Below, one piece after another: positions 13,784 to 52,853 of a stretch of DNA of 64,000 nt. The translations under genes and the position numbers were made by a program. The stretch comes from a bacterium. Lineage in GTDB: Bacteria > Patescibacteriota > Minisyncoccia > Phycocordibacterales > UBA6899. Within the stretch, counting starts at the first letter, position 1; the number at the start of each line of letters is the position of its first letter. Under the pieces are notes generated by a model. It was not told the origin of the DNA. It saw only the letters and a list, made by a program, of their open reading frames with translations, and did no database searches. The DNA is taken from positions 5,854 through 69,853 of the forward strand of contig JAYTUL010000042.1 of NCBI GenBank assembly GCA_043744555.1. Reading direction: 5' to 3'.

Positions 13784-14353
13784 ATGCAAAACACCAAACA
13801 GATCATACTCTCAGCCTCCCTTATTGCCGTTTTTATCCTTTTTGTCATTTATGAGAAACAAAATGCAGATTCTTCTGCTAACGCTTTCGTTGCACCCTTG
13901 GCTCAAGGCACTCCTACTGCCATCGATAAAACCCCAAGCGTGACACCCGCAGTACCTCCCGCAACACCCACAAAGCCTTACATACCAGCTCCAACTCCCA
14001 CGCAAGTAGCCATAAAACCAAGTCCCGCGGCTCCCGCTCCAGTTCCTGCGCCTACACCTAGGGTTGCCAAATACCAAGACGGCACGTTTACAGGAAAAGT
14101 TGCAGATGCCTATTTCGGCAATTTGCAAGTTGCGACTGTCATAAATAGCGGTAAGATCACTGATGTGAAATTTCTGGAATATCCAAACGATCAACCTGAG
14201 TCTCTTCAGATAAGCAACCGCACGATGCCTAAACTTAAGTCCGAGGCAATAAGTTCGCAGAGTGAAAAAGTAGATATTATTTCTGGAGCGACACAGACTT
14301 GCGAAGCATTCAATGAGTCGCTCGCAGACGCATTGTTGCAAGCAAAGGCATAA
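13784..14353 (+). CDS. Membrane-anchored FMN-binding (FMN_bind) domain protein with a flavinylation motif
   Basis: TM anchor, a Pro/Ala/Thr-rich linker, then DGTFTGKV...GKITDVKF...VDIISGATQTCEAF. The S-G-A-T motif is the ApbE flavinylation site. Confidence 0.75.
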   Translation: MQNTKQIILSASLIAVFILFVIYEKQNADSSANAFVAPLAQGTPTAIDKTPSVTPAVPPATPTKPYIPAPTPTQVAIKPSPAAPAPVPAPTPRVAKYQDGTFTGKVADAYFGNLQVATVINSGKITDVKFLEYPNDQPESLQISNRTMPKLKSEAISSQSEKVDIISGATQTCEAFNESLADALLQAKA

Positions 14354-14357
14354 GACC

Positions 14358-15107: not shown

Positions 15108-15112
15108 TATTT

Positions 15113-16633
15113 ATGCTTCTCACAATCGATAATTTTTTGAATAAGATAACGATGTATCGGCTGGTCCTTTATTATCTGACTGGACTTTTTTTTATCGCAC
15201 TTCTATTCGCAATATTCGGTATCCTTCCGTACTCGCCGGTTGCACTAGTCTATTCCCTTATCGTGTTACTTATGGCATGTGTACTCACGAACACATTGTT
15301 CGCACGCGTATTCGCAGTCGAGGCGAATGTTGAATCAACATATATCACCGCTTTCATTCTTGCCCTCATCATCTCTCCCGTTGCGGTAAGTGATATACAT
15401 GGTGGACTTTTCCTTGTGAGCGCGGCGGTCATCGCGATGGCTTCTAAGTTCGTCTTTGCCATCGATCGAAAGCATATCTTTAATCCCGCGGCATTTGCAG
15501 TCGCCATCACCGCGGCAACCATGGGTAACTCTGCAAGCTGGTGGGTGGGCGGCAATATCCCCATGATCCTATTTGTGGTGATCGGAGGAGTGCTCGTGGT
15601 GCGGAAGATTCGCCACGTCGATCTGATGGTCGCTTTTTTTGTAGCTGCGCTCGTAAGTGTTGCCTTATTTGCACGCGCGGGAGCCGACCCGCTACTGTCG
15701 ATGCAAAAAGCCCTTACACATTCGCCTATTTTATTTCTTGCGTTTGTCATGCTCACCGAGCCACTCACGACACCTCCCACACGAAAGCTGCGCATACTTT
15801 ATGCAGGACTTGTGGGATTACTCTATTCGCCAGCAGTGCACCTCGCGAGTATTTATTCAACTCCGGAGCTTGCGCTCTTGGTCGGAAATATATTTTCATA
15901 CTGCGTGAGCCCCAAAGGTAAACTTCTCCTTCGTCTGAAAGAGATAAAAAGCATCGCTTTCGGAACTCAAGAATATGTTTTTGATGCTCCCACAATACCC
16001 GAGTTCAAATCCGGTCAATATATGGAATGGACTCTAGGGCAAGCACACATCGATAGTCGTGGTAATCGCAGGTACTTCACTATCGCTTCCTCGCCCACTG
16101 AACCGACCATCCGTCTTGGGGTGCGCATGTACCCTAATGCGAGTACATTCAAAAGTACGCTCGCGACACTGAGTCCTGGTGACACCCTGATCGCAGGGCA
16201 ACTTGCAGGAGATTTTGTCTTGCCCGAAGATAAGAAACAAAAATTAGTTTTTATTGCTGGCGGTATCGGCGTAACTCCTTTTCGCAGCATGATCAAATAC
16301 ATGCTTGATACGAATGAGAAGCGAACAATCACGCTCATGTATTCGAACAAAACAGCGTCTGAGATCGCATACAAAGAACTTTTTGAGGAAGCAGCAGAAA
16401 AACTCGGTATTAAGAATGTTTATACTCTCACAGATGAAATTCCTAAGGATTGGAGTGGTCGCACGGGATTCATTAGTAGGACGATGATCGAAGAAGAGGT
16501 GCAGGATCACCTAGAGAGTATGTTCTATATTTCAGGTCCACAGGCAATGGTCGCCACTTTTGAGAAAACACTTTCAGAAATGGGCATTCCAAAGAGTCAT
16601 ATCAAAACTGACTTTTTCCCAGGTTTCGCCTGA
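15113..16633 (+). CDS. Fusion of an RnfD/NqrB-like membrane domain to an NqrF/FNR-like FAD + NAD(P)H oxidoreductase domain
   Basis: The N-terminal domain has KHIFNPAAFAVAI (compare RnfD NPFNPAM) and MLTEPLTTPPTRKLRILYAGLVGLL (compare RnfD [25 protein letters not shown]). Where RnfD has SGAT it has SMQK. The C-terminal domain has RYFTIASSP (RxYS FAD motif), GGIGVTPF (NAD motif) and YISGPQAM. Confidence 0.75.
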   Translation: MLLTIDNFLNKITMYRLVLYYLTGLFFIALLFAIFGILPYSPVALVYSLIVLLMACVLTNTLFARVFAVEANVESTYITAFILALIISPVAVSDIHGGLFLVSAAVIAMASKFVFAIDRKHIFNPAAFAVAITAATMGNSASWWVGGNIPMILFVVIGGVLVVRKIRHVDLMVAFFVAALVSVALFARAGADPLLSMQKALTHSPILFLAFVMLTEPLTTPPTRKLRILYAGLVGLLYSPAVHLASIYSTPELALLVGNIFSYCVSPKGKLLLRLKEIKSIAFGTQEYVFDAPTIPEFKSGQYMEWTLGQAHIDSRGNRRYFTIASSPTEPTIRLGVRMYPNASTFKSTLATLSPGDTLIAGQLAGDFVLPEDKKQKLVFIAGGIGVTPFRSMIKYMLDTNEKRTITLMYSNKTASEIAYKELFEEAAEKLGIKNVYTLTDEIPKDWSGRTGFISRTMIEEEVQDHLESMFYISGPQAMVATFEKTLSEMGIPKSHIKTDFFPGFA

Positions 16634-16665
16634 GCAGCAGTAACTCTGGTATAATTGTTTTTACT

Positions 16666-18342
16666 ATGAACGACCTGAACGAAAAGAAGGAAGTGGGTGA
16701 GATCAAGTCTTTTTTTAAGGGAGACGTTGAAGAAAGCGATGCAGTGCTCGATGAGTACAGCCATGACACGAGTCTCTTCACTGTGAGACCAAGCCTTGTT
16801 ACATTTCCAAAAGATAGTGCTGACATATCTCAGTTGGTGCATTATGTAAATAAAAAAAATAGCGAGGGGGGGGAACAGAAACTCTCTCTTACCGCGCGTT
16901 GTGCAGGTACGGATATGACCGGAGGCCCACTCACAGAGTCTATTGTGGTCGCATGTACGCGCTATCTCAATAAGCTGAGATCCATTGAAGGCGACATCGC
17001 AGTGGTCGAGCCTGGGATGTTCTATCGTGATTTTGATAAGGAGACCCTCAAACACGGACTGATACTTCCAAGCTACACTGCTTCGCGCGAGATAAATACC
17101 GTCGGGGGAATGGCTGCAAACAATTCAGGCGGTGAAAAGAATCTCATGTACGGTAAGACCGAGCGCTGGGTAAGGGCGCTCTCCGTAGTGCTCGATGACG
17201 GCTCTATTGAGATATTCCATGAGCTTACATCGGACGAGCTTGAAGCCAAGAAATCGGCAAGTAATCGTGCAGCCGAGATCTACCGCAAGATGCATGAACT
17301 CATCATCCAAAATTACGATGTCATCATGACCGCGAAACCAAATGTTTCGAAGAATTCTTCAGGTTACTACTTGTGGAATGTCTACGATAAAGAACGCGGA
17401 ACATTTGATCTTACTAAGATGATCGTCGGCTCGCAGGGAACGCTAGGTATTATCACCGAGATAACCTATGCACTCGTCAAGCCAAAGCCGCACCGACGCA
17501 TGATCACCATTTTCCTGAAGGATCTGTCTTTTCTTGGCACGCTCGTCAATCATGTGCTTTCATTTAAGCCTGAAAGCTTTGAGTCATACGATGACCACAC
17601 GTTCTCACTTGCCATGCGCTTCTTCCCTCAGATAGCAAAGCGCTTGAAGGGTAACTTGATCACGCTTGGAATTAGTTTTATTCCTGAGTTTTGGCTCGTC
17701 ATCTCGGGGGGCGTGCCCAAGCTCATTCTGCTTGCAGAATTCTCAGGCGACACCGAAGAAGAGGTCGTGCGCAACGCCACAGCTGCCGCAAAAGACATTG
17801 CAGACACATTTCATGTGCCTGTACGCGTGCTCCACTCTGAGGCTGAGGCAGAGAAGTATTGGGTCATTCGTCGTGAAAGCTTTAGTTTGTTGAGACAGAA
17901 TCTGCATGGAATGCGCACCGCACCGTTTATCGATGATTTCGTGGTTCGTCCTGAATTCCTGCCTGAGTTCATGCCAAAGTTGAATACTATTCTCGATAAG
18001 TATCATTTAATCTATACCATCGCGGGACATGTTGGGGACGGAAATTTCCATATCATACCGCTTATGGATCTTTACGACCCAAAGTCCAAAGAAATCATTC
18101 AGACACTTTCCAAAGAAGTCTATGAGCTCGTGTTCTCATATCACGGTGTCATCACGGGCGAGCACAACGACGGCATTATTCGTACCCCCTATCTTGAGGA
18201 AGAATTTGGTACTCCTATCTACGACTTGTTCATTGCGACTAAGAATATTTTTGATCCCAACGCAATTTTCAATCCCGGCAAGAAAGTCGGAGGCACGCTT
18301 GCTTATGCCATGGAGCACATCGACACTCGCAAAACCGCCTAG
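16666..18342 (+). CDS. FAD-linked oxidase (FAD_binding_4 / GlcD-D-lactate dehydrogenase-like)
   Basis: CAGTDMTGGPL is a PCMH-type FAD-binding motif and the size matches the family. Confidence 0.85.
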   Translation: MNDLNEKKEVGEIKSFFKGDVEESDAVLDEYSHDTSLFTVRPSLVTFPKDSADISQLVHYVNKKNSEGGEQKLSLTARCAGTDMTGGPLTESIVVACTRYLNKLRSIEGDIAVVEPGMFYRDFDKETLKHGLILPSYTASREINTVGGMAANNSGGEKNLMYGKTERWVRALSVVLDDGSIEIFHELTSDELEAKKSASNRAAEIYRKMHELIIQNYDVIMTAKPNVSKNSSGYYLWNVYDKERGTFDLTKMIVGSQGTLGIITEITYALVKPKPHRRMITIFLKDLSFLGTLVNHVLSFKPESFESYDDHTFSLAMRFFPQIAKRLKGNLITLGISFIPEFWLVISGGVPKLILLAEFSGDTEEEVVRNATAAAKDIADTFHVPVRVLHSEAEAEKYWVIRRESFSLLRQNLHGMRTAPFIDDFVVRPEFLPEFMPKLNTILDKYHLIYTIAGHVGDGNFHIIPLMDLYDPKSKEIIQTLSKEVYELVFSYHGVITGEHNDGIIRTPYLEEEFGTPIYDLFIATKNIFDPNAIFNPGKKVGGTLAYAMEHIDTRKTA

Positions 18343-26721: not shown

Positions 26722-28260
26722 ATGAAACAACAGAGACCTACAAACCACACCCACTGGGCAAAGCAAAAACCTGAACTATATATGCTTGCCGGCCTCTTTG
26801 TGTCCTGCATGGCCATAGTGATGGCGGGTAACACCCTTCTGCCCGCCTCACAGTCTATCGCCAACTCTTCTCCCGCACTCTTGTATAAAGTAGCGATGAA
26901 TGAAGAGATGCATCGACCGACCGTCAGTGTTCCGGAAGCAGGAAAATTGATCGCGGTCGACTTGAATTCAATGGAGCTGTCACTTTATGAAGATAGCGTA
27001 AAGGAAAAGACATTCACCATACTTTCTCGTGGCAGAGAGGGTACAGCATGGGAAACTCCGACGGGAAAATATAGAATACAGTCAAAAGAGCTGAAACACC
27101 TCTCAAGCATAGGCGGTACGTGGATGCCGTACAGTATGCAATTTTATGGAAATTTTTTCATTCATGGCTGGCCAACATACAAGAATGGAGAGAACGTGCC
27201 CGTCGGTTATTCGGGGGGGTGCATCCGTATGTCGACCGCGGACGCAAGTGAAGTGTATGCATTTGCAGCACTCGGAACTCGCGTCATTGTGAGTGGCGGG
27301 ACCTCAAAAGATACATATGCGACAACTTCACGCTATTACCTGCATCTGCCAGAAAAGTCAGACTCATTAGTGGCAGAAAAGATCTTGCCGACTGTTACCG
27401 CCCCGTCCTTTGTTGTCTCAGATGCGATGACAGGAGATGTGTTGTGGGAGCGCGGTGCCTCACATGCACTTTCGCCTGGGGCGCTTGTTTCACTCGCGAC
27501 CGCCCTCACTGCGGTCGAGACAGTCAACCAATATAAGATCGTGCGCATGGGTGAGCTACTGCTCGGGAAGTCCGTCTTGCGTAAGGAGACACTTGGATAT
27601 GCTGATGAGCTGCCGGTTGGAACCCTTATCTATCCGCTTCTGTATGACACGAGCGACACAGCAGCAAAAGTATTCTCACGTGAACACGGTGAACGAAAGT
27701 TTAAGTCATACATGAACGAAAAAGCGGAAGCGATAGGAATGAACGCGACGCATTTTGGGGGAGGGTCATCGCAAGATGCATCGACCTCGACTGCTCGCGA
27801 CCTTGATATGCTTTTGCGTTACACTCTCTTGCATAAACATTTTCTTGTCGCAGCCTCATTGTCGAGTAAGCGCACTATTGTTGATAGCGATGGGAACCGT
27901 CGCTTCGAATGGGAAAATAAGAACCCGTGGGTACAGAACGGCGACCCCGCTTATCGCGGTGGCATCGCAAAAGAAGAAGATGACGGAAGTGGTAGTGCGA
28001 TGACACTTTTTGATCTGCCCGTGTCTGAATTTGGCGCGAGGACGATAGCGATAGTTATCCTTGGTTCGAAGGATCTTAAGGGAGATGTTTCGGTGCTCAA
28101 ACAATTTGTTGCTGATTACTACGTCTATGATATCGAGCGCAAAGAACAGTTCACCCACGAGGGGATGGAGCCAACGCCCTCACTTTATCAAAAAGCTTCG
28201 ACCTTGCTTGGTCTTGAGAAACTTTTGAAGCAAGACATCGTTTATGATCGCGAGATATGA
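26722..28260 (+). CDS. L,D-transpeptidase (YkuD domain) fused to a C-terminal serine-peptidase S11/PBP5-like domain that appears catalytically degenerate
   Basis: YkuD: FIHGWP...GYSGGCIRM. The C-terminal domain has S11-like SFVVSDAMTGDVLWERGASHALSPGALVSLATAL, but SxxK reads S-L-A-T and no clear SxN or KTG is present. Confidence 0.65.
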   Translation: MKQQRPTNHTHWAKQKPELYMLAGLFVSCMAIVMAGNTLLPASQSIANSSPALLYKVAMNEEMHRPTVSVPEAGKLIAVDLNSMELSLYEDSVKEKTFTILSRGREGTAWETPTGKYRIQSKELKHLSSIGGTWMPYSMQFYGNFFIHGWPTYKNGENVPVGYSGGCIRMSTADASEVYAFAALGTRVIVSGGTSKDTYATTSRYYLHLPEKSDSLVAEKILPTVTAPSFVVSDAMTGDVLWERGASHALSPGALVSLATALTAVETVNQYKIVRMGELLLGKSVLRKETLGYADELPVGTLIYPLLYDTSDTAAKVFSREHGERKFKSYMNEKAEAIGMNATHFGGGSSQDASTSTARDLDMLLRYTLLHKHFLVAASLSSKRTIVDSDGNRRFEWENKNPWVQNGDPAYRGGIAKEEDDGSGSAMTLFDLPVSEFGARTIAIVILGSKDLKGDVSVLKQFVADYYVYDIERKEQFTHEGMEPTPSLYQKASTLLGLEKLLKQDIVYDREI

Positions 28261-43652: not shown

Positions 43653-43732
43653 AAATCGCTCGACAAGTGTTGATCGATTTGTTTTTGTCATCGGCTTTTA
43701 TTTCAAGGCCCGTATGTTACTATCTGTTTATG

Positions 43733-45520
43733 ATAGAGATAGAAGAAAAATTAGCAGAGCTTATCGAGCGCGCGCTTGACGAGCTTGGGGTTATGAATGC
43801 AAAAGTGTCCTTGGAGCATCCCGCAGAAATCGCGCACGGTGATTATGCCACCAACGTAGCGATGGTGGCGGCAAAGGCTGCCGGCAAAAATCCTCGTGCG
43901 CTCGCCGAGGAAATTGTCGCCAAACTGAAAGAGGGGAACACTCTAGAAATCGCAGACGTCTCCATTGCTGGCCCTGGCTTCATTAACTTTAAACTTTCAA
44001 ATACATATTTTACGAATTGTTTAGATCAGAGTATCAAGGACGGTGCGGCATTTGGCAAAAACGATATACTTGCGAATGCGCGTGTCGTCGTCGAATACAC
44101 AGACCCCAATCCGTTCAAAGAATTTCATATCGGGCACCTTATGAGCAACACTATCGGTGAATCCATTTCTCGTCTCATCGAAGCCTCTGGTGCCGAAACA
44201 AAACGTGCCTGTTATCAAGGTGACGTAGGGCTGCATGTAGCAAAAGCGGTGTGGGGACTTCGAGTTTTAGTTACTGAGGCGGCTCAACGACTCGGAGAGA
44301 AATGGGACCTAAGTCTCTCTCTTGAAACAATGCTCGAAACATCTAAGTTTATTGATGAAAAAAAGTTAAAAGAGAATCTTTTGTTTGCTTATAGTTATGG
44401 TTCAAAACAATATGAGCTAGACGAAGTCGCAAAAAAAGAAATTCAAGAAATAAATAAGCAACTTTATACTCGTTCAGATGAAAGAATTAATGAGCTTTAT
44501 GATTGGGGTCGAAAGCAGTCACTTGAAGAGTTTGAAACTATCTATAAACGCCTCGGTACTAATCATAATAAAAAAGAAGGAAAGGCTTTTGATTTTTATT
44601 TCTTCGAGTCTAATACTGGTGAGTTCGGCAAGAAAGTTGTTGAAGAGCATAGAGATATATTTGAGACAAGCGAGGGTGCTGTGGTCTACAAAGGCGACGA
44701 GGCAAAAGGCCTGCACACGCGTGTGTTCATAAATAAAGAGGGGTTACCTACATATGAAGCAAAGGAGCTCGGACTTGCCAAGATAAAATACGACGCGTAT
44801 CCATATGACACGTCGATTATCATCACCGGCAATGAGGTGAATGATTATTTCAGGGTACTGCTCGATGCTATGGCAAAAGTATTCCCTCTGCTTGCCGCAA
44901 AGACCGAGCACTATTCTCATGGCATGCTGCGCTTGCCGACAGGCAAGATGTCCTCGCGCACAGGCGATGTCATTACCGCAGAGGCGCTCCTTGCTGATGT
45001 GAAGTCACGTGCGATAGCGAAGATTACAAAAGATGATTTTACTGAAGAAGAAAAATCTGACATTGGAGAGTTGGTCGCTATCGGTGCCATCAAATATAGT
45101 ATTTTACGCCAAGCTGGAGGCAAAGATATTATTTTTGATATCGAGCAGTCGCTCTCATTTGAGGGGGACTCAGGTCCTTATTTGCAGTACACATATGCAC
45201 GGACACGCTCGCTGCTTAAAAAGGCAGGCGAGAAGAAAGGGGATGCACAGAGAATGACTTCGGCGGAGGTCATTCCCCTCCATAAGTACATATTGCGATT
45301 CCCCGAGGTGGTATTGCGTGCACAACAGGCGCGAGAGCCGCACTTTGTTGCCACCTATCTTATTGAGATAGCCCGAGAATTTAATGCATTCTATGCCAAC
45401 AATCCGATATTAGACGGCTCTCCTGATGAGCCATACAAACTCGCCCTTGTGGAATCAGTATCACACATCCTTAAGTATGGACTTTGGTTGCTTGGTATCG
45501 AAGCACCAGATAGAATGTAA
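43733..45520 (+). CDS. argS: Arginine--tRNA ligase (the ORF-track start 43667 is probably over-extended)
   Basis: PNPFKEFHIGHLMSNTIGES (HIGH motif), the DALR anticodon-binding domain, and ...KYGLWLLGIEAPDRM, a typical ArgRS C-terminal ending. Confidence 0.9.
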   Translation: MEIEEKLAELIERALDELGVMNAKVSLEHPAEIAHGDYATNVAMVAAKAAGKNPRALAEEIVAKLKEGNTLEIADVSIAGPGFINFKLSNTYFTNCLDQSIKDGAAFGKNDILANARVVVEYTDPNPFKEFHIGHLMSNTIGESISRLIEASGAETKRACYQGDVGLHVAKAVWGLRVLVTEAAQRLGEKWDLSLSLETMLETSKFIDEKKLKENLLFAYSYGSKQYELDEVAKKEIQEINKQLYTRSDERINELYDWGRKQSLEEFETIYKRLGTNHNKKEGKAFDFYFFESNTGEFGKKVVEEHRDIFETSEGAVVYKGDEAKGLHTRVFINKEGLPTYEAKELGLAKIKYDAYPYDTSIIITGNEVNDYFRVLLDAMAKVFPLLAAKTEHYSHGMLRLPTGKMSSRTGDVITAEALLADVKSRAIAKITKDDFTEEEKSDIGELVAIGAIKYSILRQAGGKDIIFDIEQSLSFEGDSGPYLQYTYARTRSLLKKAGEKKGDAQRMTSAEVIPLHKYILRFPEVVLRAQQAREPHFVATYLIEIAREFNAFYANNPILDGSPDEPYKLALVESVSHILKYGLWLLGIEAPDRM

Positions 45521-45523
45521 CGT

Positions 45524-45793
45524 ATGGAGAACGAAACCAAACTGACACCAATGGTAAATGTATGGATGGTGGTTTTTTGTACGATGCTTGCCACCGGGCT
45601 GTTTGGCTTCATATGGCACACCATGGGCATGAGCGAGGCGCGCGACGCGGATGAGAAAGAATCGCTAGTTGTAAAAGAAGATATTGTCCGCCTCACCGTC
45701 TATCGCGACCAACTCAAGACCAAGATGGCGAGTACGAGCGCAACTACAACACAACAGTCAGCATCGTCTACCACTAATAGTGTTAAAAAATGA
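45524..45793 (+). CDS. Small membrane protein (1 TM + charged tail)
   Basis: ORF between argS and ileS on the same strand. Confidence 0.4.
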   Translation: MENETKLTPMVNVWMVVFCTMLATGLFGFIWHTMGMSEARDADEKESLVVKEDIVRLTVYRDQLKTKMASTSATTTQQSASSTTNSVKK

Positions 45794-45797
45794 TCAT

Positions 45798-46064
45798 ATG
45801 AGTCGAAAAGAAGTACTTCAACTGAATGGGCTAACAATACTTGTGGTCATTACCCTTATTGCGAACTTTCTTATCGTGGGATTTTTTTACCGTTTTCACA
45901 ACTACAATTTGTTCGTGCAAGAAAAAAAACATGGGGTGGAATACACTCAACATCTCAAGACGCAGCATGATCTCCATCAAGAAATTGCCAACATGGAGGG
46001 TGTAAAAACATGGAACGAAACAGGGTATATGCAGAATCTGAATATCGGCGAATTTGGAAAGTGA
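45798..46064 (+). CDS. Small membrane protein (1 TM)
   Basis: MSRKEVLQLNGLTILVVITLIANFLIVGFF... Confidence 0.4.
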   Translation: MSRKEVLQLNGLTILVVITLIANFLIVGFFYRFHNYNLFVQEKKHGVEYTQHLKTQHDLHQEIANMEGVKTWNETGYMQNLNIGEFGK

Positions 46065-46308
46065 TCACGCGGATGAGTCCGTCTCGCAGGTGGGGTTTGT
46101 TTGGGTCATGTTGCCCGACCTTGAACGGTTTGATTCATTTCTTGAGCCATACCCAGATTGTGTGGTGGTAGAACATCAGGAGATATTCTGGTCTTTTGAG
46201 GACTGCGCTCCAAGAGAAAGAATAGAAAAACGAACGGGAGCCATGCGAGATACATCTCGCCGTTTTGGATCGTTTTTATTGACCAAACGAACGAGAGGCC
46301 GAATATGA
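46054..46308 (+). CDS. Small hypothetical protein
   Basis: 84-aa ORF. Weak support. Confidence 0.3.
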   Translation: MESDHADESVSQVGFVWVMLPDLERFDSFLEPYPDCVVVEHQEIFWSFEDCAPRERIEKRTGAMRDTSRRFGSFLLTKRTRGRI

Positions 46309-46536
46309 GCGCGAAGACAAGACTGCAAGCAAAGAGCAGAGCGTGATGCCCCGAAAGAAATTACCCCAGGCGCCTTCCAAGGGCGCTGATGCGTTTTTGT
46401 AACATACGCTTCTCCTTAAAAGAAAATGAGCGAAACTCTCTTTGCGAATAATACCGTAAAATAAAGCCTTTTCTAATTTCCGCTTTCGAGAAATATAGTG
46501 CGAAATTAAGCGACTCAGTGTAGTATAATCGCTACT

Positions 46537-49500
46537 ATGGACAACAATGAAGACAAGAAAATGGGCAATGCCCGTGCAGGGAAAGATGGAGAGATGAGCG
46601 TATCAGCGCGCGAAGAAGCTATACAGAAATTCTGGAAAGACAATTCTATCTTCGAGAAAACCCTTGATGCCAATAAAGACAAGGAGCCATATGTCTTCTA
46701 TGACGGCCCGCCGTTTGCAACCGGACTTCCGCACTACGGCCATCTGCTTGCAGGCACTATTAAAGACGTCGTGCCACGCTTTCAAACCATGCGAGGTCGC
46801 TACGTCCGCCGCGAGTGGGGCTGGGATTGTCACGGACTGCCTATCGAGAACCTCATCGAGAAAGAGTTGGGATTTAAGACTAAGAAGGACATCGAGGAGT
46901 ACGGCATCGAGAACTTCAATCAAAAAGCGCGCGAAAGCGTGCTGACGTACGACAAAGAGTGGCGCTCGATAGTCGAGCGCATGGGTCGCTTTGTCGACAT
47001 GGACAAAGGATACAAGACCATGGACGCCACTTATACCGACTCCATCTGGTGGGCATTCAAAACCCTTCACGACAAGAAGCTCATCTATGAGGGATTCAAG
47101 TCGATGCACGTCTGCCCGCGCTGCGAGACAACTCTCGCCATATCTGAGGTAGGTATGAACTATAAAGATGTGAAAGATATTTCCGTCTATGTAAAATTCG
47201 AACTTGTCGATGAACCGAATACGTTTCTCGTCGCGTGGACTACGACACCTTGGACCCTTCCGGGTAATGTTGCACTTGCGATCGGTGCTGATATTGAATA
47301 CGTAAAAGTGAGTGCAACCCCGAGCGTTGCAGTAAATAATAAAAGGTCTGACGGATCGTATCATGAGCCTGAACGCTGGGAAGAATTTTATATATTCGCC
47401 AAAGCTCGCCTTGAACCGATGCAGATGTTGGCGCAAAAAGAGGGGAAGGATATGGAAGTTGTTGGTACTTTCAAAGGCTCCGATCTAGTTGGGAAGTCAT
47501 ACAAGCCGCTGTTTGATTATTATGCTGCAGATGAAAAGCTCGAGAATCGCGAGAATGGCTGGAAAATTTATGCGGCGGATTTTGTGACCGCAGAAGATGG
47601 TACGGGTATTGCGCATGAGGCACCCGCATTTGGTGAAGTCGACATGGAGCTCGGAAAAAAGATGAAACTTCCATTCATTCAGCATGTGAGTATGAATGGC
47701 GAGATCAAGCCTGAAGTAAAAGAATTTGCAGGATTATCGGTAAAACCCAAGTCCGATGATGACAAGGTCCGTCTTGGTACTGATATAGCAGTGCTTAAGT
47801 ATTTGCAAGAACATGGACTGTTCTTCGCAAAGGAAAATATCAACCATTCCTATCCGCACTGTTGGCGCTGTGACACCCCACTCTTGAATTACGCTGCCTC
47901 CTCGTGGTTCGTTGACGTTATCAAACTCAAACCGCGCTTGTTAGAGGAGAACAAAGAGATTTCGTGGATACCCGAGCACATGGGTGAAGGTCGCTTTGGC
48001 AAGTGGCTCGAGGGCGCGCGTGACTGGGCGATATCACGAACCCGCTACTGGGGTGCCCCTATTCCGGTTTGGAAATGCAACAAATGCGCAAAGACCGAGG
48101 TCATAGGTAGTTCCGAAGAGTTGAAGAGTAAACTAACTTCAGGCAATACCTATTTTGTCATGCGCCATGGTGAGTCCGAGAGTAATGTGAAAGGCATCGT
48201 CAGCTATAAGCCGGAAGATCCGTTCCCGCTTACTGGGAAGGGCGAAGGTGAGGTCAAAGCTACCGCCAAGAAACTAGAAGCGCTCCTCAAGAGCCAAGAA
48301 AAGAGCATAGACTTCATCATCGCCTCGCCGGTGCTCCGGACCAAGCAGACCGCACTTCTCGTCTCAGAAGCACTAGGGCTTTCGCGCGAGCAGGTCATCT
48401 TTGACGAACGCATCGCCGAAGTGAATACTGGCGAGTTCAATGGCTGCTCGATAGAAGACTATCGTAGTCAATTTTCCGATACGCTTGAGAAATTTTACAA
48501 ACGTCCACCGAATGGTGAGACCCTTGAAGAGATGAAATCACGCATCGCAGCGTTTCTTTACGATGTAGATGCCAAGTATAAAGGCAAGACCATTCTCTTC
48601 GTTACACATGAGTACTGTGTGTGGATGATGCAGGCGGCGGCGCGAGGTGCGACCAACGAGGAGGCTTCACGAATGCGTGAGGTGAGCGAGGAAGATTTTA
48701 TCCTGACTGGTGAATCTCGCGAATTCCACTTCGCTCCGCTCTCGCACAATCGTAGATACGAGCTTGATTTTCACCGTCCCTTTGTCGATGTGCAAACGAC
48801 GTACCAATGTAGCTGCGGCTTAGGCACGATGACGCGCGTTTCTGACGTCTTCGACTGTTGGTTCGAGTCAGGAGCGATGCCGTTCGCACAGTTCCACTAC
48901 ATGGGTGACGAGCGCACAGAAGACGGCAAGCATTTCATCAAAAATTTCCCTGCGGACTTTATTGCTGAAGGAATAGATCAAACGCGCGGATGGTTCTACA
49001 CACTCCTTATCCTTTCCACCGGCCTTTTTGACCGCTCGCCCTACAAGAGCGTCATAGTCAATGGCTTGATCCTCGCTGAAGACGGGCAAAAGATGTCCAA
49101 GAAACTTAAAAACTATCCTGACCCGATGGAAGTGGTGGCAAAGTATGGTGCAGACGCACTCCGCTACTACTTGCTGTCTTCACCTGCGGTACGCGGAGAA
49201 GAATTACGCTTCGTCACAGCAGGTGTCGATGAGGTATTCAAAAAGATAACTCTACGTATTGGAAATGTCCGCTCGTTCTATGAGATGTACCAAGGACAGG
49301 AGCCAATTTCGCGCGAATCACCCAAGAGTACGAATGTGCTCGATCAGTGGATCCTTGCGCGTTTCCTTGAGGCGCATGCAGAGATAACGCATTTCCTCGA
49401 TAATCACGAGCTCGACCGTGCAGCTCGCCCCGTACTTCCGTTTGTTGACGACCTTTCTACGTGGTATCTGCGCCGCTCACGTGATCGCTTCAAGAATCAA

Positions 49501-50289
49501 TCAAATAATTCCTCATCTGTTTCGTTGCGGAACCCCGCCGATTCGTCACCATATGAGAATATGCCTCCATCATCGGCCTCCCCGCGCCTCACATCTGAGG
49601 TTTCTTTGATCGATTCTCCCGCTCTTGAAGCAACTCGGACTACGGGCTGGATACTTTTTCAATTCGCAAAACTCATCGCACCCTTCATGCCTTTCCTTGC
49701 CGAGGATATCTATCAGCGACTTAGTATCGAAAACAAGAAAGAGAGCGTTCATCTTGAAAGTTGGAATAATGTAGGCATCGCTGCAAGCACCATCTTGGCA
49801 GATATGGAAGAAGTGCGGCGTTTGGTCACGCTCGCACTCGACGCGCGGGTCAAAGCGGGGATCAAGGTGCGCCAACCACTCGCCCTGCTTTCGGTGAACG
49901 CGAGAACACTGAAGAATAAAGATGCATTGCTTGCGATCATCGCAGATGAGGTGAACGTCAAGAAGATACTCCTTACTGATCAGATCGATTCGAGTGCGGT
50001 AATCCTCGATACCGTCATCACACCCCTACTTAAAGATGAAGGCATATTACGCGACCTCATCCGACTCATCCAAGAAAATCGTAAGAGGCTTGAGCTTGTC
50101 CCTGACAATGCCATTTGTCTCACATATCAAGGTGACCCCGCCATTGAAGCACTAGTTGAAAAATATAAAAAAGAGCTCGAAAGTGCTGCAAACATAACTC
50201 TATTTGAGAAGAAGCTCCAGGAAGGTGGCACGCTCGCCCTTAAAGACGCAAGCTCTAGCGGACTCACAATCGCCATTCGCAAGGTATAA
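46537..50289 (+). CDS. ileS: Isoleucine--tRNA ligase (type 2, 'HYGH') carrying an in-frame histidine-phosphatase-like insertion of about 200 aa and a second Ser/Pro-rich insertion
   Basis: PPFATGLPHYGHLLAGTIKD, KMSKKLKN (KMSKS), WISR..., RRSRDRF and APFMPFLAEDIYQRL are all present and colinear. The extra length (1250 aa versus about 1040-1100) is accounted for by the two inserts. Confidence 0.95.
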   Translation: MDNNEDKKMGNARAGKDGEMSVSAREEAIQKFWKDNSIFEKTLDANKDKEPYVFYDGPPFATGLPHYGHLLAGTIKDVVPRFQTMRGRYVRREWGWDCHGLPIENLIEKELGFKTKKDIEEYGIENFNQKARESVLTYDKEWRSIVERMGRFVDMDKGYKTMDATYTDSIWWAFKTLHDKKLIYEGFKSMHVCPRCETTLAISEVGMNYKDVKDISVYVKFELVDEPNTFLVAWTTTPWTLPGNVALAIGADIEYVKVSATPSVAVNNKRSDGSYHEPERWEEFYIFAKARLEPMQMLAQKEGKDMEVVGTFKGSDLVGKSYKPLFDYYAADEKLENRENGWKIYAADFVTAEDGTGIAHEAPAFGEVDMELGKKMKLPFIQHVSMNGEIKPEVKEFAGLSVKPKSDDDKVRLGTDIAVLKYLQEHGLFFAKENINHSYPHCWRCDTPLLNYAASSWFVDVIKLKPRLLEENKEISWIPEHMGEGRFGKWLEGARDWAISRTRYWGAPIPVWKCNKCAKTEVIGSSEELKSKLTSGNTYFVMRHGESESNVKGIVSYKPEDPFPLTGKGEGEVKATAKKLEALLKSQEKSIDFIIASPVLRTKQTALLVSEALGLSREQVIFDERIAEVNTGEFNGCSIEDYRSQFSDTLEKFYKRPPNGETLEEMKSRIAAFLYDVDAKYKGKTILFVTHEYCVWMMQAAARGATNEEASRMREVSEEDFILTGESREFHFAPLSHNRRYELDFHRPFVDVQTTYQCSCGLGTMTRVSDVFDCWFESGAMPFAQFHYMGDERTEDGKHFIKNFPADFIAEGIDQTRGWFYTLLILSTGLFDRSPYKSVIVNGLILAEDGQKMSKKLKNYPDPMEVVAKYGADALRYYLLSSPAVRGEELRFVTAGVDEVFKKITLRIGNVRSFYEMYQGQEPISRESPKSTNVLDQWILARFLEAHAEITHFLDNHELDRAARPVLPFVDDLSTWYLRRSRDRFKNQSNNSSSVSLRNPADSSPYENMPPSSASPRLTSEVSLIDSPALEATRTTGWILFQFAKLIAPFMPFLAEDIYQRLSIENKKESVHLESWNNVGIAASTILADMEEVRRLVTLALDARVKAGIKVRQPLALLSVNARTLKNKDALLAIIADEVNVKKILLTDQIDSSAVILDTVITPLLKDEGILRDLIRLIQENRKRLELVPDNAICLTYQGDPAIEALVEKYKKELESAANITLFEKKLQEGGTLALKDASSSGLTIAIRKV

Positions 50290-50296
50290 TGACGCC

Positions 50297-50884
50297 ATGG
50301 CGTATCATATCTACCATACCGAAGCGATAATATTGGGCGGCAGACCAAGTGGGGAGGGCGATCAGATGCTCTACTGCTATACGCGCGAGCTCGGGCTAAT
50401 CAGAGCGCATGCAAAAAGCCTACGCGAAGGACGATCGCGCTTACGCTATGCATTGCAAATGTTCTCGCATGCAGAACTCGATGTCATTGCCGGCAAGCAT
50501 GGATGGAAACTTATTTCAGCGCGACCCGTCGATTCATTTGCGTCGCTTTGGGAGCATTCTGGAAAGCGCGCGCTATATGCACAGCACGCACAGTTATTGC
50601 GGCGGCTTATTCAGGGGGAGGAGCGCCATGAAAAACTTTTTGACGAGATATTATCGGGACTGCAATTCCTCAAAGACGTTCCACATGAAGCGATGCTTCG
50701 TACCGTTGAACTCATATTCGTGGTTCGCCTCCTCTATCATCTCGGCTATTGGGAAGAGGGTGAAGTCTTTCAGCCGCTCTTAGGAGAGAGTCCGTGGAGC
50801 GACGCAACACTCGCATTCGCGGAAGCTTCTCGCACGCCACTTTTGTTAGGTATTAATCGCGCTTTACGCGAGACACAGCTGTAG
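50297..50884 (+). CDS. recO: DNA repair protein RecO (short form). The ORF-track start 50204 overlaps ileS, so ATG 50297 is preferred
   Basis: MAYHIYHTEAIILGGRPSGEGDQMLYCYTRELGLIRAHAKSLREGRSR gives an OB-fold N-terminus typical of RecO. Confidence 0.75.
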   Translation: MAYHIYHTEAIILGGRPSGEGDQMLYCYTRELGLIRAHAKSLREGRSRLRYALQMFSHAELDVIAGKHGWKLISARPVDSFASLWEHSGKRALYAQHAQLLRRLIQGEERHEKLFDEILSGLQFLKDVPHEAMLRTVELIFVVRLLYHLGYWEEGEVFQPLLGESPWSDATLAFAEASRTPLLLGINRALRETQL

Positions 50885-50933: not shown

Positions 50934-52853
50934 ATGGACACTGAGTACGAAAGCAGTCGCATTGAGAAGGCAAAGCGCGGTCTTTATCAAGCCGATGAAG
51001 TTCTGCACAACAATGGCGAAAACGCCGATCTCTCGCCGCTTGATATAGACGTTGCTCACGACTGGGGAGATACAACCATCGTTCACGACAGAGAAAAGCG
51101 AACCGGGGGAGTAAATATCCTCAAGGCGCTTGTTGTGCTTGCCGTACTCGTCACCTTTGGCTCAGCAAGCTTCCTCTTGTACAATCTTTTCGACCCATTC
51201 GCAAAACCATCCGATAAGAACATTCTCATTACTTTTGATGTTCCAGTCGGCACCACTCCTGGAGTTCCGGCCGACATATTGGTACGTGTGAGCAATCAGA
51301 ACCGTATCGCTCTCGAATACGGCAATCTCACTATCGTCTATCCACCAGGCACCCGTAAGGGTGACACTCCCGAAAAAGATCTCCGTGACGAAAAAAAGGT
51401 TCTCGGGCAAATTGGCCCTGGGCAGGTCGTCGAGTATCATACAAAGGCAATCTTTCTTGGTGAAGAAAACACCGATAAAGAAATGCACGCGAGTCTCGAG
51501 TATCGTTTCGCAAATATCAGTTCAATATTTACGAAGGATGAGGTGCGCCTGGTCCATCTAGTTTCTGCACCGGTAAATCTCACCGTCGACGTACTCAAAG
51601 AAGTGAACTCCGGACAAGAGATTGAGCTCGGCATTAATGCCGCTTCAAATACCGTTATTCCGCTTCGCGACGTGCTAGTGAAGGTCGAGTTTCCACTCGG
51701 CTTCACCCTCTCTGACACTGACCCAAAACCGACATTTGGCAACAACATCTGGCGCATCGGCACCATGGATCCCGCAAGCAAATTCAAGATACGTATCAGG
51801 GGAATACTTGCAGGTGAAGATACGCAAGAAAAGGTCTTTCATACAAGCGTCGGCGCCGGAAGCGACCAGACTGAACGCAATATTAGCATCATGTACTCAA
51901 CCCAGCTCTCAAGTTTGGTAGTGCAGCGTCCATTTATTGGTATCGCGCTTTTATTGAATGGCAAGTCTGCCGAACAGGCGACTGCGCACTTTGGACAGCG
52001 CATCGGAGGTGAGGTCAACTGGCACAATAATCTTCCGACGAAGATCATCAATGCACAGATCGAGGTCAAGCTAAAGGGAGTTGCACTTGACCGAACCACT
52101 GTTGTTGCGCGCAATGGCTTTTATCGCTCATCAGACGATACGATATTTTGGGATGAACGTTCCAATCCTTCACTTGCAGTGCTTGAAGCGGGCGACAGTG
52201 GTAGTGTTGATTTCTCTTTCTTGCCAATGCCGGCAATATCTGGAACCCAGCTTCTCACCAATCCGACCATCACGGCTGAAGTGACCGTGCGTGGAAAGCG
52301 TATTTCAGAGGCTGGAGTACCAGAAGAAGTGAAGACAGCGACCTCACAGTTCGTAAAGATCACTTCACAGGCACAATTTACTGCTCGCTCAGTGTACTAT
52401 GCTGGACCATTTGTAAACACAGGACATCTTCCTCCAAAAGTTGAACAAGAAACGACCTACACCATAATCTGGGATATCGTGAATATCTCAAACACCATCA
52501 GCAATCCACAAGTACGCGCTATCATCCCACCATATGTAACTTGGGCGGGAGCAGTATATCCGAACAAAGAAAACATTACATACAACCCAAATACTCACCA
52601 GATAACCTGGGCACCGGGAGACATTCCTGCGGGCACTGGGGTGGGCAAGCCACCACGCGAGGTTGCATTCCAGATAATTCTTGCACCAAGCATCAGTCAG
52701 ATCGGAAGCACCCCAACCTTAATGGACCACATTCATTTCGACGGCACAGACTCATTCACCAGCGAATCCCTGGCACAAGATATCAATGATATTACGACCG
52801 TGCTCGTCACTGACCCCAGAGCGACAAAGGAAATGTACACTGTTGTTCGATAA
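50934..52853 (+). CDS. Large membrane-anchored surface protein (cytoplasmic N-terminus, 1 TM, beta-rich repeat-like ectodomain)
   Basis: TM helix ILKALVVLAVLVTFGSASFLLYNLF, then about 550 aa extracytoplasmic with CARDB/DUF11-like character. Confidence 0.55.
   Translation: MDTEYESSRIEKAKRGLYQADEVLHNNGENADLSPLDIDVAHDWGDTTIVHDREKRTGGVNILKALVVLAVLVTFGSASFLLYNLFDPFAKPSDKNILITFDVPVGTTPGVPADILVRVSNQNRIALEYGNLTIVYPPGTRKGDTPEKDLRDEKKVLGQIGPGQVVEYHTKAIFLGEENTDKEMHASLEYRFANISSIFTKDEVRLVHLVSAPVNLTVDVLKEVNSGQEIELGINAASNTVIPLRDVLVKVEFPLGFTLSDTDPKPTFGNNIWRIGTMDPASKFKIRIRGILAGEDTQEKVFHTSVGAGSDQTERNISIMYSTQLSSLVVQRPFIGIALLLNGKSAEQATAHFGQRIGGEVNWHNNLPTKIINAQIEVKLKGVALDRTTVVARNGFYRSSDDTIFWDERSNPSLAVLEAGDSGSVDFSFLPMPAISGTQLLTNPTITAEVTVRGKRISEAGVPEEVKTATSQFVKITSQAQFTARSVYYAGPFVNTGHLPPKVEQETTYTIIWDIVNISNTISNPQVRAIIPPYVTWAGAVYPNKENITYNPNTHQITWAPGDIPAGTGVGKPPREVAFQIILAPSISQIGSTPTLMDHIHFDGTDSFTSESLAQDINDITTVLVTDPRATKEMYTVVR

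Follow-up and report, generated by a model that had tools for sequence, protein, structure and literature searches.

Among the isoleucyl-tRNA synthetases (IleRS) of solved structure, those of T. thermophilus (1ILE) and Priestia megaterium (IleRS2, 8C8U) resemble the enzyme described here, which belongs to an uncultivated Parcubacteria bacterium, in family and domain order. In all three, the order runs from the Rossmann fold through the CP core, the CP1 editing domain, CP2, CP3 and the anticodon-binding domain to a C-terminal DUF5915. The name CP3 and its Zn motif come from the T. thermophilus enzyme (PMC7191050), whose Cys4 zinc knuckle is also found in our IleRS. In the solved enzymes a short loop joins the two halves of the knuckle, whereas here about 205-212 additional residues stand between them.

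The inserted residues were compared with small phosphatases, namely PspA (phosphoserine phosphatase, 4IJ5), PhoE (1H2E), CobC (alpha-ribazole-5'-phosphatase, 6E4B), the riboflavin-pathway HFP (9MMH) and Rv2419c-type hydrolases. Identity to these is only 19-26%. The insert differs from them in an H-E-Y at the second His and in being nested in, or encoded beside, an aminoacyl-tRNA synthetase (aaRS) instead of being a free protein.

Fusions of a comparable kind have been described. NF040702, an IleRS with an N-acetyltransferase domain, is a curated precedent for an extra enzymatic domain in IleRS, but its extra domain is a GNAT and ours a histidine phosphatase. Our IleRS scores 296.7 bits against this model (cut-off 1999) and is therefore not a member; it also has no Pfam match to a GNAT domain. 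In the RNase H/acid phosphatase of the Rv2228c/SCO2299 type (NF005567), a CobC-like phosphatase is joined to a nucleic-acid enzyme as it is here, although end to end and with RNase H as the partner instead of nested in an aaRS. PFKFB (6-phosphofructo-2-kinase/fructose-2,6-bisphosphatase) is likewise an end-to-end fusion, in which both activities act on the same metabolite, while the IleRS phosphatase is nested.

The window, that is, the whole stretch of 64,000 nucleotides that was analysed, contains the following features at this locus.

43667..45520, + strand: argS, upstream neighbour (Pfam Arg_tRNA_synt_N, tRNA-synt_1d, DALR_1)
46537..50289, + strand: complete ileS open reading frame from the ORF list, 1250 aa plus stop, with the nested phosphatase domain
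48076..48087, + strand: first half of the CP3 zinc knuckle, C514-N-K-C517, both Cys invariant in 120/120 homologues
48130..48765, + strand: inserted segment, aa 532-743, comprising linker, histidine-phosphatase domain and return strand/linker, delimited by the gap against human IleRS and insert-less orthologues
48154..48675, + strand: His_Phos_1 domain proper (PF00300, Pfam), aa 540-713
48163..48186, + strand: RHGESESN, aa 543-550, with catalytic Arg543, nucleophilic His544, Gly545 and Asn550; R, H, G and N invariant in 120/120
48337..48339, + strand: second phosphate-binding Arg, R601, in SPVLRTKQT, invariant in 120/120
48418..48420, + strand: proton-donor Glu, E628, in D623-x-R625-x-x-E628, invariant in 120/120
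48607..48609, + strand: second catalytic His, H691, in VTHEY, invariant in 120/120
48808..48816, + strand: second half of the CP3 zinc knuckle, C758-S-C760, both Cys invariant in 120/120
50204..50884, + strand: recO, downstream neighbour (Pfam RecO_N, RecO_C)

The insertion in CP3 of IleRS

The ileS reading frame is uninterrupted over its 1250 codons. The ileS equivalog model TIGR00392 matches the whole protein in three stretches with 825.4 bits, above its cut-off of 621.4 despite the insertion. The Pfam match to tRNA-synt_1 is broken into two stretches that flank His_Phos_1, and PF08264 (Anticodon_1) and PF19302 were also matched. The HIGH signature reads HYGH (aa 66-69), the CP1 editing motif WTTTPWTLPGN (aa 234-244) and the KMSKS signature KMSKK (aa 852-856); RRSRDRF and APFMPFLAEDIY are present as well. 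Across 83 homologues, the HIGH, KMSKS, editing-motif and anticodon-binding positions are invariant or nearly so. An earlier note on this DNA had described the continuous frame of 1250 codons and the downstream motifs KMSKK, RRSRDRF and APFMPFLAEDIY, all of which were located as claimed.

The best relatives in the PDB are the human and yeast enzymes, P. megaterium IleRS2 and T. thermophilus IleRS (phmmer E 1e-191 to 1e-195), while the type-1 enzymes of S. aureus, H. pylori and P. megaterium (IleRS1) match more weakly (E 1e-63 to 1e-75). Foldseek ranks these relatives in the same order, with E 1e-60 to 1e-73 for type 2. Judged by these rankings, the IleRS of the window is of type 2 (eukaryote-like), to which it is closer than to the bacterial type 1.

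The insertion point falls between the two zinc-knuckle halves, C514-x2-C517 and C758-x-C760, of which C514 and C517 align with the Zn-binding CP3 of T. thermophilus IleRS. In the alignment with human IleRS, query residue 531 corresponds to residue 490 and query residue 744 to residue 498, and at this position the orthologue L086, which lacks the insert, has a stretch of only about 5-8 residues. From these two alignments, the loop that was replaced measures about 5-10 residues and not the 15-20 that had been assumed. The inserted segment ends in ...APLSHNRRYEL and is followed directly by DFHRPFVD. Extra residues do lie at the IleRS site named in the earlier note, but the segment is a little longer than the approximately 197 residues given there. 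The note had also placed it inside the catalytic core; the site is instead CP3, a peripheral insertion in the Rossmann fold.

An AF2 model of the insert alone reached a pLDDT of 96.6 and a pTM of 0.92, and in the model of full-length IleRS (pLDDT 86.6, pTM 0.81) the insert region has values of 90-97. The insert is thus predicted by the models to fold as an independent domain. The residues at its junctions (N537, Y539, P736, H737 and N738) are highly conserved among 120 homologues.

The nested architecture is widespread. All of the best 120 database clusters, the most distant at 51% identity, combine PF00133 with PF00300, and the architecture recurs in at least 92 GTDB species representatives of Parcubacteria/Paceibacteria. 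By record name, at least nine candidate phyla of Parcubacteria carry the nested phosphatase, which in essentially all complete loci is embedded in an IleRS reading frame of about 1150-1290 aa. By these counts, IleRS normally contains the nested phosphatase in a large part of Parcubacteria. At a dS of about 1.09, dN/dS is 0.058 for the insert and 0.070 for the IleRS core; by this measure the insert is under purifying selection. The E-values and the conservation in hundreds of relatives exclude a chance match. We are almost certain of the reality of the domain, of its conservation and of its position within a functional IleRS.

An assembly chimera, an intein, a mobile-element remnant or a pseudogene is a practically negligible alternative. 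The conserved H737-N738 at the end of the insert superficially resembles an intein C-terminus, and one relative (P0241) has a transposase-like domain elsewhere in its IleRS. However, the residue after H-N varies (A, D, E or R) and is not Cys, Ser or Thr, and Pfam gave no match to a Hint, LAGLIDADG or HNH family, which rules out an intein. Independent assemblies from many studies, covering at least 92 species and all 120 best clusters, contain the same in-frame architecture, base composition is unbroken across both junctions and dN/dS is low, which together exclude a chimera or misassembly. Decay of the insert is incompatible with its invariant catalytic residues and with purifying selection, and its fold is that of a bona fide metabolic enzyme. 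The earlier note had therefore been right to call this a true in-frame domain insertion lacking Hint and endonuclease motifs, and neither misassembly nor pseudogene, and its refuting conditions came out in its favour. In place of the read mapping that it had proposed, the recurrence of the architecture in all of the best 120 clusters and at least 92 species serves as a stronger test.

Family and catalytic residues of the inserted phosphatase

The PF00300 profile matches the whole IleRS with E 1.4e-28 (100.3 bits; gathering cut-off 21.7) and the segment 48148-48740 alone with E 3.3e-30 (105.7 bits), in agreement with the predicted His_Phos_1 membership. The insert has the alpha/beta/alpha fold of PGM-like phosphatases, and its nearest solved structures are ordinary small-molecule phosphatases. 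R543, H544, G545, N550, R601, E628 and H691 are invariant in 120 of 120 homologues, whose domain identity goes down to about 40%; D623 and R625 are kept in 119. The roles of R601, E628 and H691 were assigned by motif position, Pfam alignment and established knowledge of the family. The three elements already read as a phosphatase signature, RHGESESN, the second Arg region and the His of VTHEY, are thus present, aligned and invariant. In 116 of the 120, Glu (E692) follows H691, so that H-E-Y replaces the commoner H-G; in stand-alone relatives the second His is followed by G, E or Q.

The best NCBIfam matches of the insert were dPGM_arch, RNase H/acid phosphatase, CobC and PspA, all far below their equivalog cut-offs. 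The highest score was obtained with dPGM_arch (NF038349; 80 bits against a cut-off of 225) and the second highest with NF005567 (74-76 bits against 326). TIGR01258 (dPGM) gave 18.8 bits (cut-off 81.7) and the remaining dPGM models 20-45 bits (cut-offs 316-366). Enzymes of the dPGM type, such as E. coli GpmA, have Y92, K100, R116/R117 and N186, with H-G-N at the second His. In the insert, H691 is followed by E-Y and not by the G-N of dPGM, and the positions +3 and +11 after E628, counted by simple spacing, are T and I and not Y and K. A glycolytic dPGM identity is not supported by the family cut-offs, although the activity itself is still conceivable. The best reading of these comparisons is that the insert represents a small phosphomonoesterase of the PhoE/PspA/CobC-like type and not a glycolytic dPGM.

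A stand-alone phosphatase gene and further fusions

Related Parcubacteria contain a separate homologous phosphatase gene of 189-197 aa, with 34-41% identity to the insert. One such protein (L081; aa 5-189 of 189) aligns to nt 48145-48729 with 37% identity (E 3e-37). As the stand-alone reading frame aligns with the insert end to end, essentially a whole reading frame was inserted. In six of seven places examined, the stand-alone gene lies just upstream of an insert-less ileS; the exception (P0484) does not adjoin ileS. The gap between phosphatase and ileS is -4 to +5 nt in four of the six upstream cases. One further locus has a gap of 98 nt, and in another a 238-aa gene stands between the two. 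All six share the argS-ileS-recO-unknown-proS block of the window, with the phosphatase between argS and ileS. The adjacency was seen with two types of IleRS that share only 36% identity.

Conversely, 78 of 80 insert-bearing loci lack a separate phosphatase gene within 6 kb, and tblastn of the 1-kb argS-ileS spacer and of the whole window revealed no second phosphatase copy or remnant. In a neighbour-joining tree, L086, which lacks the insert and has the phosphatase upstream, is sister to an insert-bearing IleRS (99/100 bootstraps). This position indicates that the location of the phosphatase changed while its association with ileS was kept. Judged by gene arrangement and phylogeny, the nested and the adjacent form replace each other. 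A separate phosphatase cistron upstream of ileS, alternating with the nested form, is the new and most informative result of these comparisons, and this alternation turns functional coupling into a concrete, testable hypothesis.

On the other hand, argS is syntenic in 54 and recO in 59 of the 80 insert-bearing loci, and argS is also found in the stand-alone loci. Because the whole argS-ileS-recO-proS block is syntenic, including unrelated genes such as recO, the adjacency could be inherited gene order. No Rfam match at the gathering threshold, and hence no T-box or other regulatory RNA upstream of ileS, was obtained anywhere in the window, which also contains no tRNA genes.

The RHG motif is retained in 223 of 232 stand-alone homologues, among which G, E or Q follows the second His. 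Most of these proteins are strongly basic (median pI 9.76, n=232), in contrast to the nested domains, which are acidic independently of GC content (median pI 5.3-5.4; net charge about -8). The IleRS of the stand-alone loci has a pI of 9.0-9.6 in three of six cases. Since these lineages partly have generally basic proteins, we did not rely on this contrast as an argument for RNA binding.

In rare relatives, the phosphatase subfamily was also found joined to other tRNA enzymes. A ValRS relative has four copies, three of them complete and, as read from the sequence, with the RHG, Arg, Glu and His positions kept; the fourth is cut short by the protein's end. One IleRS variant has copies at three sites, and a TsaC-phosphatase and an end-to-end ArgRS-phosphatase (P0255) occur as well. 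Each of the ValRS, TsaC and multi-site variants forms a singleton cluster, represented by one or two short contigs. In the metagenomic relative P0241, the IleRS combines the CP3 phosphatase with a GNAT domain, and it has the transposase-like domain elsewhere in the protein.

Possible roles of the phosphatase in IleRS

Relatives encode the same phosphatase directly before ileS, so the two enzymes probably work together. We infer that the module is enzymatically active and coupled to IleRS; on balance we lean slightly towards an active phosphatase functionally coupled to the synthetase. The protein would then be a two-enzyme polypeptide: aminoacylation of tRNA-Ile would fall to the IleRS body, and cleavage of a terminal phosphate to the inserted module. 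Hydrolysis would proceed via a phospho-His544 intermediate, with R543, R601 and H691 binding the phosphate and E628 protonating the leaving group. The module would correspond to the product of the separate upstream cistron of related Parcubacteria, and the nested and the adjacent-gene form would be alternative ways of keeping the phosphatase with IleRS.

The substrate might be a small phosphorylated by-product or competitor of adenylation, e.g. pyrophosphate or a nucleoside monophosphate, whose local removal would keep aminoacylation running. This speculative proposal, which we favour among substrates although it is in itself rather unlikely, is based on the fused partners (IleRS, ValRS, ArgRS and TsaC), all of which consume ATP, release PPi and serve tRNA metabolism. 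To our knowledge, histidine-phosphatase enzymes are not known as pyrophosphatases. A wider reading, doubtful though conceivable, is that a dedicated histidine phosphatase is an obligatory partner of class I aaRS and adenylate-forming tRNA enzymes in Parcubacteria. It would be present either as a docked subunit encoded upstream or within CP3, and would carry out an unrecognised accessory step of charging. In a cytoplasm rich in PPi, such a step might break down PPi or nucleotide by-products locally; alternatively, it might take a terminal phosphate off tRNA or off a phosphorylated inhibitor of the synthetase.

The data can also be explained by capture of a neighbouring gene, a tentative alternative that we take seriously but would not expect to hold. 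An independent housekeeping phosphatase beside ileS would later have been transposed into a permissive surface loop, with no mechanistic coupling, and the fusion would merely secure co-expression in a streamlined genome. Candidates are the "missing" phosphoglycerate mutase of some Parcubacteria and a phosphoserine, sugar-phosphate or flavin-nucleotide phosphatase. The synteny of the entire argS-(HP)-ileS-recO-unknown-proS block with its unrelated genes fits this explanation, as does the ArgRS fusion of P0255, whose end-to-end form is expected from chance read-through of neighbours. So do the ordinary small-molecule phosphatases among the closest solved structures, the archaeal-type dPGM as best NCBIfam match (80 bits), and the lack of a PGM or pyrophosphatase gene in the 64-kb window, which is uninformative for the whole genome. 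Jaffe et al. is also counted in its support. However, an end-to-end fusion becomes fixed far more readily than a nested insertion in which both folds stay intact. The phosphatase stays with ileS in two IleRS types of only 36% mutual identity, and it does so even where close relatives have switched from one form, nested or separate, to the other. Moreover, the subfamily is nested in ValRS (four copies) and at other IleRS sites, and it is fused with TsaC, which is not a neighbour of the phosphatase gene. A PGM role in particular is opposed by the missed equivalog scores (TIGR01258 18.8 against 81.7; dPGM_arch 80 against 225) and by the replacement of the dPGM H-G-N by H-E-Y.

That the module acts on RNA ends, stripping a 3'-, 2'- or other terminal phosphate so that damaged or processed tRNA-Ile becomes chargeable (tRNA "healing"), seems very unlikely. 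Every aaRS partner binds tRNA, and NF005567 sets a precedent for a histidine phosphatase fused to a nucleic-acid enzyme. A basic free and an acidic nested form would also be expected if the free protein alone had to bind RNA or an acidic partner. Yet the basic pI of the stand-alone forms is partly a proteome effect, and the net charge of the nested domain would disfavour contact with RNA. TsaC, which synthesises TC-AMP in the t6A pathway, is not the component there that binds tRNA, and we know of no RNA 3'-phosphatase in the histidine-phosphatase superfamily. A paper on yeast IleRS and tRNA mentions CP3 once, and not as contacting tRNA. More improbable still is a pseudo-enzyme without turnover, which would brace the structure, offer a surface for oligomerisation or docking, or sense a phospho-ligand and thereby tune IleRS allosterically. 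The Glu in place of the usual Gly after the second His (E692, 116/120) would suit such a module, and the conserved junction residues together with the full-length pTM of 0.81 suggest a fixed and not a floppy attachment. Pseudo-enzymes normally lose their catalytic residues, however. Here the set of R, H, N, R, E and H is invariant (120/120) down to about 40% domain identity, and, as read from the sequences, the multi-copy variants have it in their complete copies too. Whichever of G, E or Q follows the His, stand-alone homologues keep RHG (223/232). The fallback offered in the earlier note, a catalytically inactive and structural domain, is disfavoured by this invariant set.

Aminoacyl-tRNA synthetases are among the best-studied enzymes, and their extra domains for editing, tRNA binding and signalling have repeatedly opened new biology. 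A phosphatase that sits with its catalytic residues intact in the catalytic half of IleRS is an accessory domain without a described counterpart. If the preferred coupling holds and the module acts on an adenylation by-product or on tRNA, it would add a step to charging in organisms of minimal metabolism. Should the obligatory-partner reading be correct, the accessory activities of aaRS would gain a new class, similar in nature to the editing domains. If the phosphatase is instead an unrelated metabolic enzyme, e.g. the PGM reported missing from some Parcubacteria, metabolic reconstructions of the CPR would have to be corrected, and the locus would show, as a clean natural case, how a whole ORF can enter a permissive loop in an essential enzyme.

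In the searchable literature we found no description of an IleRS with a phosphatase insert. Current annotation labels hide the predicted second activity of these proteins. Public databases contain the nested architecture, unremarked, and label it only "class I tRNA ligase family protein" or "isoleucyl-tRNA synthetase".

The nested phosphatase domain of the isoleucyl-tRNA synthetase

The domain organisation of the window's isoleucyl-tRNA synthetase (IleRS) was assessed with Pfam and NCBIfam models. Its class I synthetase domain is found as two stretches on either side of a His_Phos_1 domain (PF00300, residues 540-713, E 1.4e-28). This match is far beyond chance, and the reading frame is intact, which bears out the earlier note's claim of a histidine phosphatase domain in-frame within IleRS. 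Every motif quoted there was found in the protein. Against the NCBIfam ileS equivalog the enzyme scores 825 bits (cut-off 621). It is of type 2 (eukaryote-like): the best solved relatives are the human, yeast, P. megaterium IleRS2 and T. thermophilus enzymes, with type-1 bacterial enzymes far behind.

43667-45520: argS, start of the conserved block of the window
46537-50289, + strand: ileS with nested phosphatase, one unbroken reading frame of 1250 codons
48130-48765, + strand: extra segment (residues 532-743), a gap in human IleRS and insert-less orthologues

In the alignment with human cytoplasmic IleRS, human residues 490 and 498 pair with query residues 531 and 744, and insert-less orthologues carry 5-8 residues at the insertion point; the extra segment therefore spans residues 532-743. 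The location proposed earlier, 48148-48740, is correct, its extent being slightly short. Extra residues do separate the conserved IleRS elements, but the normal spacing was given as 15-20 residues, whereas the loop replaced has 5-10. The insert is flanked by C514-x2-C517 and C758-x-C760, whose four cysteines do not vary among 120 homologues. The site lies in CP3, the Cys4 zinc-knuckle subdomain, itself inserted at the periphery of the Rossmann fold.

When nt 48148-48740 alone were compared with His_Phos_1 (Pfam), an E value of 3.3e-30 was obtained with the catalytic His and Arg aligned. Residues R543, H544, G545, N550, R601, E628 and H691 are invariant in 120 of 120 homologues, with domain identity as low as about 40%. 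We take this set to be the RHG motif, second Arg, proton donor and second His that define the branch-1 active site. Structure prediction of the insert alone (pLDDT 96.6, pTM 0.92) agrees with the expectation that it folds independently. In the full-length model (residues 19-1200; pLDDT 86.6, pTM 0.81) the insert reaches a pLDDT of 90-97, and Foldseek is in agreement with the phosphatase assignment. The insert looks catalytically competent. Because dPGM models score far under their thresholds (TIGR01258, 18.8 versus 81.7; dPGM_arch, 80 versus 225) and the second-His motif is H-E-Y instead of H-G-N, we classify the insert as a predicted small phosphomonoesterase-type member, a genuine dPGM being less likely.

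P0001, a protein in the public collection, is identical to the window IleRS. PF00133 and PF00300 occur together in all 120 of the best clusters, down to 51% identity, with Candidatus Yonathbacteria, Lloydbacteria, Pacebacteria, Minisyncoccota and the Parcubacteria group among the source names. Scanning the insert alignment against one genome per GTDB species revealed the nested domain in at least 92 species, including Lloyd-, Yonath-, Nomura-, Campbell-, Zambryski-, Kaiser-, Taylor-, Vogel- and Adlerbacteria. In essentially all complete loci the match lies within a reading frame of about 1150-1290 aa with IleRS motifs. Related IleRS proteins thus share the insert, and the nested phosphatase is widespread in Parcubacteria.

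A comparison with L001, the closest species representative (88% identity), gave dN/dS values of 0.058 (insert) and 0.070 (IleRS core) at a dS of about 1.09. One polypeptide combines a functional-looking IleRS with an intact phosphatase active site under equal purifying selection. The earlier note had rejected a misassembly, an intein and a pseudogene, and all three readings are excluded here as well: a misassembly because the architecture recurs across these clusters and species and base composition shows no break at the insert junctions, and a pseudogene because of the low dN/dS in the insert. An intein is excluded because the window protein matches no intein-type family in Pfam and because the conserved H737-N738 is followed, among the 120 homologues, by a variable residue that is never the Cys, Ser or Thr required by an intein. 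At locus L008 (Lloydbacteria GFS_13726, 1-1956), the nested domain is split, close to where the contig begins, by a stop or a frameshift.

A separate feature of the window IleRS is a 37-residue Ser/Pro-rich low-complexity segment, SVSLRNPADSSPYENMPPSSASPRLTSEVSLIDSPAL (window 49516-49626, residues 994-1030), in the anticodon-binding domain directly after RRSRDRF. This segment is missing from relatives of 82-85% identity (P0002-P0005) and is predicted to be disordered (pLDDT < 50), and local GC and AT-skew dip at the same place.

The phosphatase as a separate gene beside ileS

Searching exhaustively with the insert, without a profile, yielded 577 representative clusters at E <= 1e-10. In 97 of the best 150 the match has IleRS-like flanks; about 40 others are free-standing proteins of 185-215 aa with 34-41% identity. 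Two stand-alone families (Candidatus Staskawiczbacteria, Parcubacteria, Paceibacterota, Pacebacteria) were expanded, followed by a look-up of where they lie in the genome. The key new finding is that this phosphatase is also encoded by a gene of its own beside ileS. In 6 of the 7 stand-alone places examined, it lies directly upstream of an insert-less ileS (966-990 aa; called as two reading frames of 757 and 189 aa in L089); the remaining homologue is not beside ileS. The spacing ranges from a 4-nt overlap to a 5-nt gap in four of the six places. A 98-nt gap is found in L084/L085, and a 238-aa gene lies between phosphatase and ileS in L086/L087. The gene order in the six is argS-phosphatase-ileS-(x)-recO-(gene of about 550 aa)-proS, and once thrS-phosphatase-ileS.

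The block in the window consists of argS, ileS with the nested phosphatase, recO, a 639-aa protein and a class II synthetase, with no separate phosphatase gene. Around the insert-bearing ileS of 80 loci, many of them truncated, argS was found in 54, recO in 59, a counterpart of the 639-aa protein in 55 and proS in 46. No other homologue of the phosphatase lies within 6 kb in 78 of these 80 loci, and a tblastn search of the 64-kb window found no second copy. The nested and adjacent forms are complementary in distribution. The sole separate phosphatase gene of this kind among insert-bearing loci is a 182-aa reading frame in L024 (11763-12308), about 4 kb 3' of ileS.

The stand-alone reading frame aligns with the insert from its residue 5 through its final residue, that is, nearly end to end; the insertion therefore corresponds to the whole reading frame plus a 12-residue return linker. 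The 1-kb argS-ileS spacer of the window (45521-46536) contains no remnant of a phosphatase gene by tblastn and no Rfam or T-box match. This spacer is the spot of the phosphatase gene in sister lineages, and its sole content is a 126-aa TTG reading frame with a hydrophobic stretch. The 639-aa protein (50934-52853, + strand), located between recO and the proS-like gene, has no Pfam match, and its homologues at other loci show only faint CLIPPER/DUF7619 matches.

The association of the phosphatase with ileS is common to two IleRS types of only 36% mutual identity. The type in L081, L083, L084 and L088 is 36% identical to the window IleRS and that in L086 and L089 is 51% identical; the phosphatase gene precedes both. 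In a crude neighbour-joining tree of the window's IleRS lineage, the insert-less IleRS of L086, which has a separate upstream phosphatase, is sister to the insert-bearing IleRS of L036 (Zambryskibacteria) in 99 of 100 bootstraps, and insert-bearing IleRS proteins are never monophyletic excluding L086. By its 63% identity to P0210, against only 39% to the L036 insert, the phosphatase of L086 is a member of the stand-alone family. This grouping, together with the stand-alone type of the L086 phosphatase, implies that the position of the phosphatase has probably changed repeatedly, by relocation or by loss of the nested domain, with the link to ileS retained.

Further fusions and possible function

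Five singleton clusters, which we treat as leads, carry the same phosphatase subfamily in other arrangements. P0175 (metagenomic, 1161 aa) is a ValRS by its PPPNVTG signature and by best match to valS models, and has four phosphatase domains, of which one occupies the CP3-equivalent site and two follow it in tandem; the copies resemble one another most. By eye, the RHG, Arg, Glu and His are kept in the three complete domains; the fourth is truncated where the protein ends. The IleRS P0247 (1087 aa) carries the phosphatase at three sites: within the CP3 knuckle, ahead of the ADFIAEG motif and at its C-terminus. P0241 (IleRS, 1066 aa) combines a REP-associated tyrosine-transposase-like domain in the editing domain with the CP3 phosphatase and a GNAT domain. 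These two proteins suggest that, in CPR bacteria, certain IleRS loops are hot spots at which whole domains become inserted. End-to-end fusions with a C-terminal phosphatase are found in the ArgRS P0255 (689 aa) and in P0219 (387 aa), a TsaC/Sua5 protein (threonylcarbamoyl-AMP synthase, a t6A enzyme) whose phosphatase is 49% identical to one nested in IleRS. The contig of P0255 is 70 kb long, and those of P0175, P0219, P0247 and P0241 are short (4-11 kb; two for P0175, the longest 3.9 kb). All fusion partners convert ATP to an adenylate with release of PPi in tRNA metabolism.

Taken singly, neither host nor guest is out of the ordinary, the one a type-2 IleRS and the other a small histidine phosphatase; their combination is unusual. 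The closest precedents are NF040702 (IleRS with an acetyltransferase domain) and NF005567 (bifunctional RNase H/acid phosphatase), NCBIfam families of which the window protein is not a member. No description of an aminoacyl-tRNA synthetase with a histidine phosphatase domain was found in the searchable literature, and databases list such proteins under generic names ('class I tRNA ligase family protein' or 'isoleucyl-tRNA synthetase'). Synthetases with accessory domains are known; a nested, apparently active phosphatase as the accessory is new.

We infer from the genomic evidence that the phosphatase is functionally tied to IleRS; the module would be active and would work with the synthetase. 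In the main rival explanation, a neighbouring gene was captured and the phosphatase would be an unrelated housekeeping enzyme. Under a functional tie, our preferred guess for the substrate is a small phosphorylated by-product or competitor of adenylation, either PPi or the 5'-monophosphate of a nucleoside. Relatives of the CobC type effectively act as 5'-nucleotidases on an unusual nucleotide. Since we know of no histidine phosphatase that is a pyrophosphatase, this substrate assignment is speculative and rather doubtful. A weaker possibility is that the phosphatase acts on tRNA ends. Most of the stand-alone proteins (P0271-P0506) are strongly basic, with a median pI of 9.76 and a net charge near +14, although this is partly confounded because other proteins in some of those lineages are likewise basic. 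The nested domains are acidic, with a median pI of 5.3-5.4 regardless of genomic GC (P0001-P0120, L001-L080), which is unfavourable for binding RNA.

Surroundings of the block

The remainder of the 64-kb window holds typical housekeeping and envelope genes.

13691-16633, + strand: FMN-binding-domain protein, ApbE flavin transferase, 506-aa NQR2/RnfD-like membrane and NAD-binding oxidoreductase protein
16666-18342: FAD-linked oxidase, after the ApbE/NQR-like cluster
after the 639-aa protein: proS-like gene
surroundings: two-component system; ECF-type sigma factor
surroundings: ZIP transporter, ClpB, MurD, GlmS, NusG, L11, Tmk
surroundings: pirin, Band-7 protein, beta-lactamase-like protein

Neither tRNA genes nor Rfam matches were found in the window. 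No phosphoglycerate mutase or pyrophosphatase gene lies within its 64 kb, which is uninformative for the whole genome. The genes at 13691-18342 form a membrane redox module that relies on flavins and is unusual in a CPR genome. A 512-aa protein (26722-28260, + strand) unites YkuD L,D-transpeptidase and Peptidase_S11 D-Ala-D-Ala carboxypeptidase domains.
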